Of a stretch of DNA of 64,000 nt, positions 2,238 to 9,468 are shown piece after piece (the first letter of the stretch is position 1; each line of letters starts with the position of its first letter). Below the pieces are notes generated by a model. It was given only the letters and a program-made list of their open reading frames with translations, had not been told where the DNA came from and made no database searches. The DNA is from a virus. Lineage: Duplodnaviria > Heunggongvirae > Uroviricota > Caudoviricetes. A program made the translations under genes and the position numbers. Where the stretch lies: the IMG/VR virus record IMGVR_UViG_3300045988_006728; one strand, 5' to 3'.

Positions 2238-2275
2238 GTATTGACAATGTGTTTGATACCCTTTAATATGTTCTA
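2238..2275 (+). promoter_or_regulatory. Sigma70-like promoter (TTGACA-17-TAATAT)
   Basis: Good -35/-10 match with 17-bp spacer upstream of the tRNA array. Confidence 0.5.
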
Positions 2276-2330: not shown

Positions 2331-2368
2331 CTTGACAATCACTAAAAAATAATGTTAAAGTGGTTACA
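2331..2368 (+). promoter_or_regulatory. Sigma70-like promoter (TTGACA-17-TTAAAG)
   Basis: Second promoter in tandem directly upstream of the first tRNA. Confidence 0.4.
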
Positions 2369-2387: not shown

Positions 2388-2464
2388 CTCTGTTTAGCTC
2401 AGCTTGGTAGAGCGTTCCGTTTGGGGCGGTAAGGCCGGAGGTTCAAGTCCTCCAACAGAGACCA
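2388..2464 (+). tRNA. tRNA-Pro (anticodon TGG)
   Basis: Acceptor ctctgtt/aacagag, D-arm gctc-agcttggta-gagc, T-arm ggagg-ttcaagt-cctcc, anticodon loop tttgggg, encoded CCA. Confidence 0.7.
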
Positions 2465-2471
2465 AATTAAT

Positions 2472-2549
2472 GTTCCAGTAGACAAAATGGTAAAGTCACC
2501 ACTCTTTCAAAGTGGATATCTGAGGGTTCAAATCCCTTCTGGAACGCCA
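2472..2549 (+). tRNA. tRNA-Glu (anticodon TTC)
   Basis: Acceptor gttccag/ctggaac, anticodon stem ccact/agtgg with loop ctttcaa, T-loop ttcaaat, CCA. Confidence 0.7.
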
Positions 2550-2556
2550 GTTTTGA

Positions 2557-2628
2557 CAGAAGACCAATTACAGCAAACTTAATCTACTCATCTGACACGA
2601 AATCGGACAAAGAAGATATTTGGTCTGG
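2557..2628 (+). ncRNA. Structured inter-tRNA element, unit 1 (A box CAGAAGACC ... B box GGTCTGG); candidate Y RNA-like stem-loop
   Basis: AGACC of the A box pairs with GGTCT of the B box; conserved TaCAGCAA follows the A box; same framing repeated at three other sites. Confidence 0.35.
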
Positions 2629-2639
2629 TCATTGAGAAT

Positions 2640-2716
2640 TGCGGGTATAGAGAAAGGGCGTCTCACATGTCTCATTAGCATGGTATCGGCAGGTTCGACT
2701 CCTGCACCCGCCTCCA
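2640..2716 (+). tRNA. tRNA-Met (anticodon CAT)
   Basis: Anticodon stem catgt/gcatg with loop ctcatta, T-arm gcagg-ttcgact-cctgc, CCA; first acceptor pair mismatched and position 37 is T. Confidence 0.55.
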
Positions 2717-2722
2717 ATTTTG

Positions 2723-2782
2723 CAGAAGACCGTATTCAGCAACAAAATACTTTTTGCGGATAAAAGAAAAAACACGGTCTGG
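2723..2782 (+). ncRNA. Structured inter-tRNA element, unit 2 (A/B box framed)
   Basis: CAGAAGACCgtaTtCAGCAA at 2723 and GGTCTGG at 2776; the inner helix shows compensatory changes relative to unit 1. Confidence 0.35.
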
Positions 2783-2793
2783 CAATGTATTAA

Positions 2794-2870
2794 GGTTAGG
2801 AAGCACATAAGGTATGTGCGGTCGCCTGTTAAGCGAATGGCACAGGGTTCGAATCCCTGACTAACCGCCA
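2794..2870 (+). tRNA. tRNA-Asn (anticodon GTT)
   Basis: Anticodon loop ctgttaa, T-arm caggg-ttcgaat-ccctg, acceptor 3' strand actaacc, CCA. Confidence 0.65.
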
Positions 2871-2879
2871 AATTTAAAT

Positions 2880-2967
2880 GTGTCGTTATCCCGTAGATGG
2901 TAGCGGTGGGGACTGTAAATCCCTTGTCATTGAGACTCGGTAGGTTCGACTCCTACACGGCACACCA
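2880..2967 (+). tRNA. tRNA-Tyr (anticodon GTA), class II with long variable arm
   Basis: 88 nt; anticodon stem gggga/tccct with loop ctgtaaa; T-arm gtagg-ttcgact-cctac; CCA. Confidence 0.65.
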
Positions 2968-2972
2968 ATAAA

Positions 2973-3050
2973 GGTTATGTAGTTTAATTTGGTTAAAATA
3001 CTCCCCTGTCACGGGAGATGATGAGGGTTCAAATCCCTTCGTAACCGCCA
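2973..3050 (+). tRNA. tRNA-Asp (anticodon GTC)
   Basis: Anticodon stem ctccc/gggag with loop ctgtcac; T-loop ttcaaat; CCA. Confidence 0.65.
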
Positions 3051-3111
3051 ATTTTGAGAGGGCTATTTAGCCCCTCCCTTAAAGGGTTCTTACGAGTATC
3101 CTTTAAAGGAG

Positions 3112-3184
3112 CAGAAGACCAAATACAGCAAGAACGTATGAAATTTCAAGCCAATTTAATTTTGAAAATTTAAACTTGGTCTGG
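3112..3184 (+). ncRNA. Structured inter-tRNA element, unit 3a (A/B box framed)
   Basis: CAGAAGACCaaaTaCAGCAA at 3112 and GGTCTGG at 3178. Confidence 0.35.
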
Positions 3185-3197
3185 CTCAACAAATTTA

Positions 3198-3329
3198 CAG
3201 AAGACCGTTTACAGCAAAACTTAAACAATCTATTTCTCCGGTAAAGAAAAGGCGAAGGTTCGATTCCTTCACTCGGCAGATGTCGAGTTGGTGTAATGGT
3301 AGCACTTAAGATGATAAACAACGGTCTGG
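3198..3329 (+). ncRNA. Structured element, unit 3b, with internal tRNA-mimic domain; candidate YrlA-like Y RNA
   Basis: A box at 3198 and B box at 3323 frame a T-arm (gaagg-ttcgatt-ccttc, 3254-3270), a 7-bp acceptor-like helix closed by a 4-nt loop (actcggc-agat-gtcgagt, 3271-3288) and a D-arm (gtg-taatggtag-cac); there is no anticodon arm. Confidence 0.4.
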
Positions 3330-3330
3330 T

Positions 3331-3474
3331 AATTATCTTTGTAGATAAGTTATTAAGCTTACCTGTGAGTATGCGACCACAAAGGGTGAAAGGGTAAATT
3401 CTAGATTTAAACCCAAAAAGGCACATCGCTACAGACCTTAAGCAAGTCTGGGTAGCTTATCTACAAAGATAATT
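3331..3474 (+). repeat. Perfect 19-bp inverted repeat (AATTATCTTTGTAGATAAG) flanking a 106-bp structured segment
   Basis: 3331-3349 is the exact reverse complement of 3456-3474; the interior holds further hairpins (cagac-N8-gtctg); ends 4 nt before tRNA-Lys. Confidence 0.6.
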
Positions 3475-3478
3475 TAAT

Positions 3479-3554
3479 GGAAGTGTAGCAGAATGGTGAT
3501 GCGGCAGACTTTTAATCTGACAGGCGATGGGTTCGAATCCCTCCACTTCTACCA
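3479..3554 (+). tRNA. tRNA-Lys (anticodon TTT)
   Basis: Anticodon loop cttttaa, D-loop aatggtga, T-loop ttcgaat, acceptor ggaagtg/cacttct, CCA; paralog of the tRNA at 5201. Confidence 0.7.
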
Positions 3555-3558
3555 ATAT

Positions 3559-3635
3559 GGTTCAGTCGCAGATAAGGTAATGCAGGGGTCTCATAAGCCC
3601 TATGAATGTGGGTTCGATTCCCATCTGAACCTCCA
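3559..3635 (+). tRNA. tRNA with anticodon CAT (Met, fMet or Ile2)
   Basis: Perfect acceptor ggttcag/ctgaacc, anticodon loop ctcataa, T-loop ttcgatt, CCA. Confidence 0.7.
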
Positions 3636-3636
3636 A

Positions 3637-3712
3637 GCTGGTATAGTTAAGAAGGTTATAACACTCCCCTGATAAGGGAACATCGGTGGTTCGATTCCAC
3701 CTACCAGTACCA
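3637..3712 (+). tRNA. tRNA-Ile (anticodon GAT)
   Basis: Anticodon loop ctgataa, T-arm ggtgg-ttcgatt-ccacc, CCA. Confidence 0.7.
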
Positions 3713-3723
3713 ATTTCAATAAA

Positions 3724-3759
3724 GTTGTTGACATTGAGATGTGACTACTTTATAGTAAC
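3724..3759 (+). promoter_or_regulatory. Sigma70-like promoter (TTGACA-17-TATAGT)
   Basis: Strong -35/-10 match; followed by about 230 nt of structured non-coding sequence before tRNA-Arg. Confidence 0.5.
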
Positions 3760-3987
3760 CTTAGTTTTCGTTGCGTAGCGTCTATTTTGCAAATTTAAAA
3801 TAAATGCAAACGACAATGTTTTTCTGGCAGTAGCTTGATAGGCTAAACACCAGTGAGGTCTTCCAATCCCTCATCAAAGAATTTGGCGTACTCGCCCACG
3901 GTATGATTAATAATGTGGGCAACACTCTAAAGGGTATCCCTTATGGGTCTTGGCTTAAATGCAATAAGTACCCTTTAAAATGTTAAT

Positions 3988-4064
3988 GCACCCTTAGTTC
4001 AATTGGATAGAGCAACGGTCTTCTAAATCGTTAGTTACAGGTTCGAATCCTGTAGGGTGTGCCA
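3988..4064 (+). tRNA. tRNA-Arg (anticodon TCT)
   Basis: Anticodon stem acggt/atcgt with loop cttctaa; T-loop ttcgaat; acceptor gcaccct/agggtgt; CCA. Confidence 0.7.
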
Positions 4065-4207
4065 ATTTAGTTAGCAGATTGCTTAGACGACCTTATCGGG
4101 TCTCCGTGTAAGGAGGTGGTCTGTATCTCATGTTTTCCAGAACATGTAAATAATCTGAGAAGGTGCTTTACAGTGTTGAGATAATACGGTAAGCTTCGAA
4201 TTATAGT

Positions 4208-4290
4208 GTGGGACGATGTTAAGACTCTAAGGCATGAGCAACGGCCTCCAAAACCGTTTCAAAGTGGTTCAACTCCTCCGTCCCATGCCA
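4208..4290 (+). tRNA. Atypical tRNA-like gene, anticodon loop ctCCAaa (Trp?), 8-bp acceptor helix
   Basis: 8-bp helix gtgggacg/cgtcccat, discriminator G, CCA and T-loop ttcaact are present, but the D-region is about 8 nt too long for a canonical fold. Confidence 0.35.
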
Positions 4291-4303
4291 AAGTCTTATT
4301 AGG

Positions 4304-4393
4304 GGTAGGTAGCGGCTAATGGTAGCCAAACTGTCTTGAAAACAGTTGCCACTGTAGAGATACGGTGAGGGTTCGACTCCTTTACTTACCGCC
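4304..4393 (+). tRNA. tRNA-Ser (anticodon TGA), class II
   Basis: 90 nt; anticodon stem actgt/acagt with loop cttgaaa; long variable arm; T-loop ttcgact; discriminator G; only CC of CCA encoded. Confidence 0.65.
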
Positions 4394-4662
4394 TAATAAG
4401 ATTTAAAGCCAAGCTTCATTCGGATGTTGCTTTGGTATCCCTCGTGTATTGTCGTACACGCACAGTAAAGCACCTAGTAGGTGTCACGGAGAAGAGATAA
4501 TATCAAGCTCTCCAAAGGTTCTAGTCACCGGATTAAACAAGACTATGCAAAGACCTTTTTAGGTCTTTTTAGAGGGCTTCTAAGGTTATTACAGCTTGTT
4601 GTGGAACCTTGTTGCTTAGGTTCTTAGAAGTTCTCTAAAAAGATTTAATGGGAGATTGACAT

Positions 4663-5115
4663 ATGGCACGTAGCAGTTTGACTAAAGATATTCTTGAACC
4701 TTTAGTAAAGGGTTCAGTATCATTCAGAGAAGTGCTTATAAAGCTTGGGAGAAAACCATCAGGTGGTTCTCAGTCACATCTAAAGCGTGTTATAGAGAAG
4801 TTTGAAATAGACACTTCTCATTTCCTCGGACAAAAGGCTGGTAAGATTAAAACTGTACCAAAAAGAAAGCCTGAAGAAATCTTAATTCTACGTGAATCTG
4901 GTGAAAGAGCAAGGTCTTCACAACTAAGAAGAGCTTTAATAGCATCTGGTATCGAATACAAATGCTCTAAATGCGGTCAGTTACCGGAGTGGTTGGGCAA
5001 CCCTCTAACTCTTGATGTTGACCACATTAATGAGAACTGGTTAGATGATAGAAAAGAGAATCTTCGGTTCTTATGTCCAAATTGCCACAGTCAATTCTCA
5101 AGGCATTTGATTTAA
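4663..5115 (+). CDS. HNH homing endonuclease inside the tRNA array
   Basis: 150-aa ORF with C-terminal HNH signature DVDHINENW...RFLCPNCHSQ; stop codon lies 2 nt before the next tRNA. Confidence 0.7.
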   Translation: MARSSLTKDILEPLVKGSVSFREVLIKLGRKPSGGSQSHLKRVIEKFEIDTSHFLGQKAGKIKTVPKRKPEEILILRESGERARSSQLRRALIASGIEYKCSKCGQLPEWLGNPLTLDVDHINENWLDDRKENLRFLCPNCHSQFSRHLI

Positions 5116-5116
5116 T

Positions 5117-5193
5117 GCACCTATAGCCCAACTGGTAGAGGCAGCAGACTTAGAATCTGCTCAGTGTGAGTTCGAATCTCTCTAGGTGTACCA
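5117..5193 (+). tRNA. tRNA with anticodon TAG (decodes Leu CUA) but class I, short-variable-arm fold
   Basis: Acceptor gcaccta/taggtgt, anticodon stem gcaga/tctgc with loop cttagaa, T-loop ttcgaat, CCA; variable arm only 5 nt. Confidence 0.55.
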
Positions 5194-5200
5194 AATTAAT

Positions 5201-5276
5201 GCAGGTGTAGCAAAATGGTTATGCGGCTGACTCTTAATCAGTAAGACGATGGGTTCAATTCCCTCCACCTGTACCA
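5201..5276 (+). tRNA. tRNA-Lys (anticodon CTT)
   Basis: Paralog of tRNA-Lys(TTT) at 3479 with a compensatory change in the anticodon stem; loop ctcttaa; CCA. Confidence 0.65.
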
Positions 5277-5282
5277 GACATT

Positions 5283-5358
5283 GGGGATGTAGTTTACATG
5301 GTTAAAACATAAGTTTTGCAAACTTAAGTACAGGGTTCAATTCCCTGCTTCTCCACCA
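5283..5358 (+). tRNA. tRNA-Ala (anticodon TGC)
   Basis: G3-U70 wobble pair in the acceptor stem (ggggatg/cttctcc), anticodon loop tttgcaa, T-arm caggg-ttcaatt-ccctg, CCA. Confidence 0.7.
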
Positions 5359-5364
5359 ATTAGT

Positions 5365-5439
5365 GCATCCATAGTTTAAACGGGAAAATTACAGTCTTCC
5401 AAACTGAGGTTGAGGGTTCGAGTCCCTTCGGATTCTCCA
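5365..5439 (+). tRNA. tRNA-Gly (anticodon TCC), acceptor stem imperfect
   Basis: Anticodon loop cttccaa, T-arm gaggg-ttcgagt-ccctt, CCA; two mismatches in the acceptor helix. Confidence 0.5.
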
Positions 5440-8968: not shown

Positions 8969-9468
8969 TGGCTGAAGTTATCTCTATTTCAAATGCTACA
9001 CGAGTGCATTCGTATAGAGGTGTTCTTATTATCACTGACAAATTATCTGTAGAGGCTGGCTCAAGGGTCAGCCTTTCAGGTTATGTAAGTGATGGTGGAA
9101 CCTCTGACGTTTTCACTATTTGCAGGTTACTTGATGCACCAATGAGTGGAAAACCGTTTATTTTAGGAAATTGTAGTGAAATTGTTAAAATTCCATTTGA
9201 CAGTTCATGCCTTTTGGGTGTAAAGTTATATAACTGCGAGAATAAACGTATCAATGTTAATAGCATTGAAGCCGCTTTCATTACCCTCGACACTGCATTT
9301 CAATCTCCAATGACAGTTAATAAAGAAACAAACAGACTTGAATACATTTTTTCACAAAATGATTACAAAGTACTTGTCAAAGGCAAAGTATATGATATGA
9401 TTGTAAATGTGGTAGATGAATCTGGTAACCATTCAACAGTCCTTAAACAAAAAGTAAGGTTTAATTAA
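8968..9468 (+). CDS. Hypothetical head-module protein
   Basis: 166-aa ORF, start overlaps portal stop. Confidence 0.4.
   Translation: MAEVISISNATRVHSYRGVLIITDKLSVEAGSRVSLSGYVSDGGTSDVFTICRLLDAPMSGKPFILGNCSEIVKIPFDSSCLLGVKLYNCENKRINVNSIEAAFITLDTAFQSPMTVNKETNRLEYIFSQNDYKVLVKGKVYDMIVNVVDESGNHSTVLKQKVRFN

Follow-up and report, generated by a model that had tools for sequence, protein, structure and literature searches.

Organization of the locus

The 64,000-nucleotide (nt) stretch of viral DNA analyzed here (the window; IMG/VR record IMGVR_UViG_3300045988_006728) belongs to a Felix O1-like phage (Felixounavirus, Ounavirinae) and is 95-99% identical over 12 kb to approx. 220 phage records. On its plus strand, a gene encoding a divergent Ro60-like protein is followed by an array of transfer RNA (tRNA) genes at 2388-5439, in which ARAGORN makes 15 calls and Rfam 13 tRNA matches. 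Between tRNA-Asp (ending at 3050) and tRNA-Lys (starting at 3479), the array is interrupted by a 428-nt gap without any ARAGORN call or Rfam call at the gathering threshold. The gap contains a hairpin of approx. 138 nt, here termed M4, which carries a tRNA-like head with permuted connectivity. With a probability of roughly three in four, M4 is a YrlA-like Y RNA: its stem, together with an ACAGCAA motif, would bind the Ro60-like protein, and its apical domain would form a capped tRNA-like structure. Conservation of Ro60-Y RNA particles extends from bacteria to humans. Three shorter paralogs of M4, termed M1-M3, lie upstream of it (Table 1).

Table 1. Coordinates of the features discussed in the text (window positions)
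Feature	Position	Strand	Basis or remarks
Ro60-like protein gene, 471 amino acids	807-2222	+	Helical TROVE-like ring and C-terminal vWA domain
Sigma-70-like promoter match 1	2241-2269	+	Consensus scan only; ahead of first tRNA
Sigma-70-like promoter match 2	2332-2361	+	Consensus scan only; ahead of first tRNA
M1, short paralog	2554-2631	+	Fills tRNA-Glu/tRNA-Met spacer; stem and ACAGCAA
M2, short paralog	2720-2785	+	tRNA-Met/tRNA-Asn spacer; apical hairpin CUUUUU-GCGGAUA-AAAAG
M3, short paralog	3109-3187	+	Directly upstream of M4
M4, full YrlA-like RNA candidate	3195-3332	+	Fold and family alignment
M4 outer helix, 4 base pairs (bp)	3195-3198 with 3329-3332	+	UUAC/GUAA
M4 internal loop	3199-3201 opposite G3328	+	AGA/G
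M4 closing helix, 8 bp	3202-3209 with 3320-3327	+	AGACCGUU with AACGGUCU
CAGCAA motif	3212-3217	+	Single-stranded, just 3' of the 5' strand of the closing helix; with U3210-A3211, UACAGCAA
V hairpin	3233-3249	+	UUUCU-CCGGUAA-AGAAA; anticodon-arm look, variable-arm position
T-arm mimic	3254-3270	+	GAAGG-UUCGAUU-CCUUC; direct reading, partial Rfam tRNA alignment
Acceptor-like helix	3271-3277, loop 3278-3281, 3282-3288	+	ACUCGGC, AGAU, GUCGAGU; direct reading
U8-G9 linker	3289-3290	+	Direct reading
D-arm mimic	3291-3305	+	GUGU-AAUGGUA-GCAC; direct reading
Structured element, 148 nt	3330-3477	+	24-bp perfect stem around approx. 100 nt, between M4 and tRNA-Lys; z = -6.4

Anatomy of the tRNA-like head

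The initial annotation, made from the sequence alone, had described a canonical T-arm followed by two heptamers that form a 7-bp acceptor-like helix capped by a 4-nt loop, with neither a free 5' or 3' acceptor end nor a CCA. Direct reading of the T-arm, acceptor, and D-arm domain of M4 bears out each of these elements. In particular, ACUCGGC pairs with GUCGAGU over 7 bp around AGAU, including one G.U pair (G3276.U3283), and the domain has no CCA and no free acceptor end. The proposed D-arm is also present, but its stem, previously drawn as gtg/cac, is better described as a 4-bp GUGU/GCAC stem enclosing a 7-nt AAUGGUA loop, which carries A14, G18-G19, and A21. The view that the domain lacks an anticodon arm holds in the sense in which it holds for YrlA, but not entirely, as a less conserved hairpin resembling an anticodon arm (termed V) precedes the T-arm, from which it is separated by AGGC. 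The CCGGUAA loop of this hairpin has C33 and no U33, and C3253 provides a pyrimidine at the last variable-loop position. Structure prediction folds the tRNA-like domain and closes it with the 8-bp and outer 4-bp helices; a 14-nt linker lies between the D-arm and the 8-bp helix. The data do not support a conserved analogue of the anticodon stem after the D-arm: CUUAA can pair with UUAAG in the window, a pairing that is lost in Suspvirus and Mooglevirus.

The order of the arms was searched with a descriptor composed of a T-arm, a perfect 5-9-bp hairpin, 2 nt, and a D-arm with GG. A single match was found on the two strands of the window versus none in 200 shuffles, and the rate was 0.0019 when the 60 nt behind 13 real T-arms were shuffled; the arrangement is thus real rather than a product of chance. 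M4 does not form a contiguous cloverleaf and has neither the free acceptor ends nor the 7-nt loop with U33 of a canonical tRNA gene. ARAGORN makes no tRNA call at M4, and the Rfam tRNA model matches only in part and below threshold, at 3221-3271 (22 bits versus a gathering score of 29), a segment that it reads as anticodon arm, variable loop, and T-arm. In GenBank records MZ726792 and OQ174504-6, a tRNAscan-SE 'tRNA-Thr-GGT' of 129-131 nt is annotated at the equivalent of window positions 3150-3278, because the anticodon-arm-like V hairpin precedes the T-arm. This call is erroneous and merges a portion of M3 with three parts of M4, namely the V hairpin, the T-arm, and the 3' acceptor strand: it pairs GCCAAUU with ACUCGGC at 5/7 positions across an insert of approx. 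55 nt, whereas GUCGAGU pairs at 7/7.

A common stem frame in four modules

M1-M4 share a frame on the plus strand that reads CAGAAGACC-N3-(U)WCAGCAA ... GGUCUGG. In M1, CAGAAGACC lies at 2557 and GGTCTGGT at 2622, and the module has the outer 4 bp, the AGA/G internal loop, and a 7-bp helix. The outer 4-bp helix covaries among M1-M4 (UGAC/GUCA, UUGC/GCAA, GAGC/GCUC, and UUAC/GUAA, respectively), as do the inner pairs of the main helix. The tRNA-like head is found in M4 alone of the four modules. The CAGCAA motif, which is common to all of them, is proposed to be a protein-recognition element.

The structured element at 3330-3477 has a counterpart in Suspvirus (L004:978-1126; L numbers denote loci of our comparison set) whose architecture is the same and whose stem sequence differs. 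Each of the two includes a hairpin in which a YUUWAGCAA loop tops a covarying stem (CAGAC/GUCUG versus CAAACC/GGUUUG), and Rfam gives no match for the window element. It could serve RNase III processing or be a fifth RNA of this group, possibly related to M4.

Conservation and covariation in relatives

Of the 248 matching phage records, 246 have a full-length M4, which nearly always goes unannotated. Its helices change in sequence yet stay paired across genera and where the neighboring protein is only approx. 40% identical. In Felixounavirus, the capped helix reads ACUCGGC-AGAU-GUCGAGU; in Suspvirus and the Mooglevirus phages Sf13 and 3HA14, it reads ACACGU-UACG-GCGUGU; and in the Mooglevirus phages Mordin and Michonne, ACCCUUC-GCCAAACA-GAAGGGU. 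The V-hairpin loop is CCGGUAA, with a 6-nt CGGUAA in some Felixounaviruses, CUGGUAA in Suspvirus, and a different loop in Mordin; since it differs among relatives, the V hairpin is not under anticodon-loop constraint.

A further set consisted of 80 viral contigs that carry a gene for a homolog of the protein; in 75 of them, the protein identity is 39-48%. The descriptor, which is blind to the flanks, gave 13 matches in these contigs, all on the strand of the gene. One is a true tandem tRNA pair (L046); the other 12 overlap no ARAGORN tRNA and represent nine distinct sequences from 10 loci (two of them identical). All 12 stand-alone elements have a locus-specific closing helix with a (U)WCAGCA-type motif directly 3' of its 5' strand, the variants being CCGCAA in L033 and GCAGCAU in one of the L053 elements. 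Fifteen distinct elements were compared in an explicitly segmented, N-padded alignment (A3), which was used because MAFFT alignments (full, A2; core, A4) lose the register of the capped helix. The closing helix, at -10 to -4 from CAGCA, is perfectly paired in 14 of the 15 and is followed by an invariant G. Overall, 18/22 pairs change on both sides, as do all six scored pairs of the acceptor-like helix, where pairing holds in every cell (100%); owing to its G.U pairs, the structure is specific to the plus strand. Moreover, U8, G10, A14, one D-loop G, and A21 are invariant, as are G53, T54, the Psi55 position, C56, A58, and C61 of the T-arm and the C, G, C, and A of the CAGCAA motif. The Levitt pair 15:48, which was not selected on, is G:C in seven, A:U in three, and G:G in one of the distant members. 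The acceptor helix is 6-9 bp long across members and is often closed by a tetraloop, with stable caps such as UACG, GUAA, and GAAA. A leave-out covariance model was dropped because the outer acceptor pairs alone cannot separate this arrangement from tandem tRNAs.

These data bear on the question, posed by the initial annotation, of whether the domain is a YrlA-type mimic or a rearranged pseudogene. M4 could be a functionless, decaying remnant that joins the 3' part of one tRNA-Thr copy to the 5' part of a tandem second copy. It does sit in a tRNA array, part of it is called tRNA-Thr-GGT by tRNAscan-SE-based annotations, and tandem tRNAs, which can mimic the T...D order (PMC4201824), do so once here (L046). 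Recombination between repeated modules or T-arms also occurs in the region. In SP116 (L010), the M4 T-arm is fused to that of tRNA-Lys; in warpig (L012), the M2 and M4 stems are fused, with removal of tRNA-Asn, Tyr, and Asp; and in ESCO49 (L011), the 5' part of M4 is gone. These deletions look like recombination between repeated parts of the array. However, a remnant of this kind is at odds with the full-length conservation of M4, with capped helices rebuilt from other sequences and stable caps across genera and distant phages, with tertiary-contact nucleotides that are all invariant while 15:48 covaries, and with the finding that every instance stands on a stem with a CAGCA-type motif beside a Ro60-like gene. 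M4 is thus most probably not a decaying remnant of tRNA genes, the probability of this explanation being minimal. A mimic is favored instead by the YrlA order of the arms, the Ro60-fold neighbor, the conservation, and the pairing-preserving changes.

In the closest of the distant relatives (L019; 48% protein identity and the same layout of gene, promoter, and tRNA array), a CAGCAA module at 9106-9223 has kept its T-arm, while its acceptor and D part are degenerate. Evidently, the tRNA-like head can erode while the stem stays.

The neighboring Ro60-like protein

The Ro60-like gene ends at 2222, approx. 1 kb upstream of M4 and on the same strand. Its product matches Pfam DUF2828 and DUF7788 and, weakly, VWA_2, and the PHROG annotation is 'RNA-binding protein'. 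A sequence search against the PDB returned nothing meaningful, which made a comparison of folds necessary. The AlphaFold2 model, built with 36 homologs, is confident, with a predicted local distance difference test score (pLDDT) of 86.7 and a predicted template-modeling score (pTM) of 0.88. In a Foldseek search of the PDB, the top 10 hits were all Ro60, Rsr, or TROVE proteins, matched over the full length with E values from 7e-7 to 4e-5. The predicted structure has the Ro60 architecture, in which a vWA domain comes after a ring of alpha-helical repeats. The Pfam pattern is the same, again without TROVE, for homologs from phages of Mycobacterium, Listeria, Campylobacter, and Klebsiella. M4 is most likely the Y RNA partner of this protein.

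The Felixounavirus protein Bas63 gp130 has been reported to be structurally Ro60-like, to be encoded directly upstream of tRNA genes, and to counter the Ppl defense (PMC11482910). It is very likely the product of the same gene, judged by fold, position, and genus rather than by alignment. The authors of that 2024 preprint guess that some of the Bas63 tRNA genes are possibly Y RNAs and identify no RNA; the M1-M4 candidates lie outside the annotated tRNAs, save for the occasional tRNA-Thr-GGT mis-call.

Two further genes were observed near DUF2828 genes. In Listeria phage LMTA-94, an RtcB-type 'tRNA-splicing ligase' is encoded 1.3 kb downstream of the gene (L095 5307-6455), and in mycobacteriophage Kingsolomon, a Band7-like membrane protein is encoded upstream (L094 231-1163). 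RtcB and Band7-like proteins are gene neighbors in cellular Ro60/RNA-repair loci.

Modules beside DUF2828 proteins in other phages

DUF2828-type Ro60-like proteins are encoded in 710 phage records. In 75 distant loci (872 kb), a 17-mer, NGR-N5-U-WCAGCA, occurs 117 times on the gene strand versus 17, 11, and 5 times in opposite-strand, reversed, and complemented controls, respectively; within the window it is not specific (five plus-strand and six minus-strand matches). Anchored, closed modules number 148 on the gene strand versus 50, 27, and 14 in the same three controls, most commonly with a length of 50-65 nt. Such a module is found in 60/75 loci and lies within 1 kb of the gene in 50/75. 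A looser module scan (518 matches versus 138 in the control) was too noisy and was replaced by the anchored definitions.

In Mycobacterium phage Kingsolomon, whose protein is annotated as 'Ro-like RNA binding protein' and is also DUF2828 by Pfam, three modules, the middle one tRNA-like, lie downstream of the gene and are followed by an intrinsic terminator. Three modules lie upstream of the gene in Listeria phage LMTA-94 and two in Campylobacter phage F365; Bacillus phage FADO has modules and T/AS/D elements upstream, and Klebsiella phage KP13-26 has four modules downstream. No module is found in Vibrio phage TCU-VP03 under the strict definition. A search of Rfam 15 (E<=10) with window positions 3040-3490 returned no family beyond the partial tRNA match, although it is unconfirmed that this release holds a YrlA model. 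In 11 distant loci, Rfam finds tRNA, transfer-messenger RNA (tmRNA), and group I intron matches only, and no family covers the modules. The viral contigs encoding the Ro60-like protein include one with a tmRNA gene (L072 8619-9092, 70.9 bits) and one with a group I intron (L033 11696-11922, 71.5 bits).

Some modules carry hairpins that resemble an anticodon stem-loop: L094 4164-4219, L088 7936-7990, L098 4345-4418, L096 2365-2428, and window positions 3233-3249 and approx. 2750-2767. They belong to a subset of the short modules, in which one phage each of Mycobacterium and Klebsiella and an uncultured phage share an almost unchanged UUUCA-CUGYUAA-UGAAA. Mimicry of the anticodon stem-loop as a general role of short modules was rejected, since a 7-nt loop occurs in only 12/63 of them and a stable inner hairpin is missing from 18.

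It may be asked whether the stems need a protein partner at all, as they might serve as processing punctuation or as a free-standing tRNA decoy, independently of the Ro60-like protein. M1-M4 occupy tRNA spacers, an RNase III-like 24-bp duplex lies 3' of M4, some short modules carry the hairpins just described, and phage tRNAs have been discussed as counter-measures to tRNA-targeting defenses (PMC11482910). Nevertheless, the module stands beside the Ro60-like gene in 32/47 loci without any tRNA, usually less than 500 nt from it and on the same strand, and in Kingsolomon the gene, modules, and terminator make up a compact unit without a tRNA array. Furthermore, a conserved single-stranded CAGCAA beside a helix of variable sequence resembles a protein-recognition site rather than a nuclease site. 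A role of the stems independent of the protein is hence unlikely: the module goes with the Ro60-like gene rather than with tRNAs, and the stem-CAGCAA hairpin appears to be the general partner of the DUF2828 protein family.

Comparison with YrlA and other tRNA-like RNAs

YrlA consists of a Ro60-binding stem and a tRNA-like module in which a less conserved V stem-loop, a T stem-loop, a closed acceptor stem-loop, a U-purine dinucleotide, and a D stem-loop follow one another; its tertiary nucleotides are conserved, its variable loop ends in a pyrimidine, its Levitt pair covaries, and its genes lie within 4 kb of Ro60 on the same strand (PMC4201824; bioRxiv 10.1101/312249). YrlA is further characterized by binding to, and stabilization through, Ro60 and by modification through TruB and DusA. 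Like YrlA of S. Typhimurium and M. smegmatis, M4 combines a terminal stem with the order (V)-T-closed acceptor-U/purine-D, its family keeps the tertiary nucleotides and the Levitt pair, and it lies approx. 1 kb from a Ro60-type gene on the same strand. M4 also has shorter siblings, M1-M3, as YrlA has YrlB. Unlike YrlA, which uses GNCGAAN0-1G, the M4 stem has an AGR...YCU-G closure with U-WCAGCAA; its presumed partner is a DUF2828/DUF7788 protein, Ro60-like by fold only; the stem occurs in four copies embedded in a phage tRNA array; and a long linker joins the D-arm to the closing helix, whereas YrlA has a continuous 'anticodon' stem. Ro60/Y RNA pairs are already known from phages, namely the ET08-type YrlA of mycobacteriophages, CcrColossus, and Bacillus phage G (PMC4201824), as well as phiRo60 with Yrl1/Yrl2 of Thermus phage phiLo (PMC12135203). 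Those proteins are TROVE-annotated and their RNAs were found via the CGAA bulge; here, Pfam detects no TROVE and CGAA is not conserved.

The acceptor stem of M. smegmatis YrlA is also 7 bp long; this RNA is cut by RNase P and receives CCA (PMC4201824; bioRxiv 10.1101/312249). By analogy, M4, with its helix of the same length, might speculatively be an RNase P substrate as well. A rival reading is that M4 is a split or circularly permuted gene from which a decoding tRNA-Thr(GGU) would mature, e.g., by an RNase P cut 5' of G3282, 3' trimming, and CCA addition. All parts of a cloverleaf are present in permuted order, including a 5-bp stem and 7-nt loop with GGU, and the acceptor length would suit such a cut. 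However, the GGU hairpin occupies the variable-arm position and is not stacked under the D-arm, C33 replaces U33, and the loop shortens to 6 nt in part of the close relatives, while Mordin and the distant members have another loop or none. The acceptor ranges from 6 to 9 bp and is often tetraloop-capped, the 14-nt linker and long closing stem take the place of an anticodon stem, and no bulge-helix-bulge junction is evident; to our knowledge, bacteria lack the bulge-helix-bulge splicing endonuclease. Maturation of M4 into a decoding tRNA is therefore very improbable. Circularly permuted tRNA genes, with the 3' half upstream of the 5' half, were reportedly described in Cyanidioschyzon merolae by Soma et al. 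in 2007 and are said to mature via a circular intermediate and the bulge-helix-bulge endonuclease into decoding tRNAs. M4 resembles them in that its T-arm and 3' acceptor strand precede the 5' acceptor strand and D-arm with a short linker between; it differs in that its cap is maintained as such, the anticodon arm is misplaced, and the termini extend into a putative protein-binding stem. Among other tRNA mimics, tmRNA and the tRNA-like structures of viruses end in a free CCA and undergo aminoacylation. M4 likewise mimics the tRNA elbow and the coaxial stack of acceptor and T-arm, but it has no free CCA end and is predicted not to be aminoacylated.

Several observations weigh against the assignment of M4 as a Y RNA. 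The Ro60-binding motif GNCGAAN0-1G (CGAA) is absent from the 5' strand of the M4 stem (AGACCGUU followed by UACAGCAA), for which reason we call M4 YrlA-like and not a clean member of the YrlA family; the sole GGCGAAG lies at the V/T junction (3251-3257) and is not conserved in distant members. A Pfam search with the protein gives no TROVE match, so that its likeness to Ro60 is one of fold only. Taken singly, the modules have modest minimum free energy z-scores (-1.5 to -2.5), and position 15:48 in the window is A:C, a non-canonical Levitt pair (A:U in some close relatives). All or part of M4 has been lost in a few Felixounaviruses (SP116, ESCO49), which indicates that it is dispensable in some contexts. 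The anchored scan has a background of 50 opposite-strand matches, and six other plus-strand matches in the window are probably due to chance. Finally, 99.1% of cells in alignment A3 are paired versus 37-43% with the partners slid, a percentage that is partly circular because segmentation required pairing. Three results are free of this selection: the flank motif that emerged after a flank-blind scan, the 15:48 pair, and the location of all matches on the gene strand.

Transcription and proposed mode of action

The two promoter matches ahead of the array read TTGACA-17-TAATAT and TTGACA-18-TAAAGT with TG, each agreeing with the consensus at 10/12 positions, and a scan for terminator-like sites on the plus strand found none before the next strong promoter at 3728. 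These promoters are the likely start of a transcript that carries the tRNAs and M1-M4. M4 would thus be co-transcribed with the array and might be freed by the tRNA-processing enzymes that act on its neighbors; M1 and M2 each take up an entire spacer between tRNAs, and the 24-bp duplex at 3330-3477 is a possible RNase III site.

By analogy with Rsr/YrlA and with Ro60/Yrl of Thermus phage phiLo, the basal stem and ACAGCAA would dock onto the ring of the Ro60-like protein. The apical domain of M4 would fold into a tRNA-like L-shape for which aminoacylation is impossible, and M1-M3 may be Y RNAs of smaller size that share the proposed protein-binding stem, much as YrlB accompanies YrlA. Y RNAs have been linked to PNPase in the Rsr-Y RNA-PNPase complex (bioRxiv 10.1101/312249) and in the Ro60-Yrl-PNPase complex of phiLo (PMC12135203). 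The tRNA-elbow mimic of M4 could tether or decoy a host tRNA-binding factor, such as a PNPase-like exoribonuclease or a tRNA-directed enzyme, and the resulting ribonucleoprotein (RNP) might contribute to the counter-defense role reported for Bas63 gp130. The anatomy, covariation, gene-RNA association, and protein fold described above are shown computationally, whereas the proposals on how M4 is transcribed and processed, whether it binds the protein, which effector it meets, and what it does for the phage are inferred.

Three side observations concern the array and its records. An HNH endonuclease open reading frame (ORF; 4663-5115; Pfam HNH, 7.6e-5) is inserted inside the tRNA array, and a similar insertion lies between tRNAs in L019. 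On the minus strand, a 107-amino-acid ORF at 3103-3426, antisense to M3 and M4, is annotated as a 'hypothetical protein' in several relatives (Alf5, wV8 gene 48, LMP34); it is probably spurious, the opposite strand being a conserved structured RNA. Felix O1-like sequence (96-98% identity) that covers the Ro60-like gene and M4 is also present in GU169904.1, a record named as Staphylococcus phage SA1, which suggests that this record is chimeric or contaminated.

Implications for phage Y RNAs

Y RNAs that mimic tRNA, phage Ro60/Y RNA pairs, and the Ro60-like fold of the Felixounavirus protein, with the guess of a Y RNA, are already known. As far as Rfam 15 and the literature were searched, the actual RNAs, their distinct docking motif, and their four copies in a tRNA array are new, as is the wide spread of the stem-CAGCAA hairpin beside DUF2828 proteins; partner RNAs of this Ro60-like branch are not described in those sources. 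The modules thus provide RNA candidates of defined position and structure, together with a proposed recognition motif, for a protein that a genetic screen has tied to counter-defense (Bas63 gp130 versus Ppl). Recurrent mis-annotations, i.e., the false 'tRNA-Thr-GGT' and the antisense 'hypothetical proteins', can be corrected as well.

As a tentative idea that we hold to be possible but doubtful, DUF2828-type proteins and 'AGR-helix + U-WCAGCAA' hairpins may constitute an unrecognized class of phage RNPs, in which a common stem carries interchangeable heads that bait or recruit host tRNA-directed enzymes against Ppl-type defenses. The heads may be a tRNA-elbow mimic, an anticodon-stem-loop-like hairpin, or none, and the class may extend from phages of Enterobacteria to those of Mycobacterium, Listeria, Campylobacter, and Bacillus. 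Searches for such RNAs across hundreds of phage genomes can use the stem with CAGCAA as a simple signature. If the assignment of M4 is true, the tRNA mimicry of Y RNAs would reach a second protein clade with a different docking motif.

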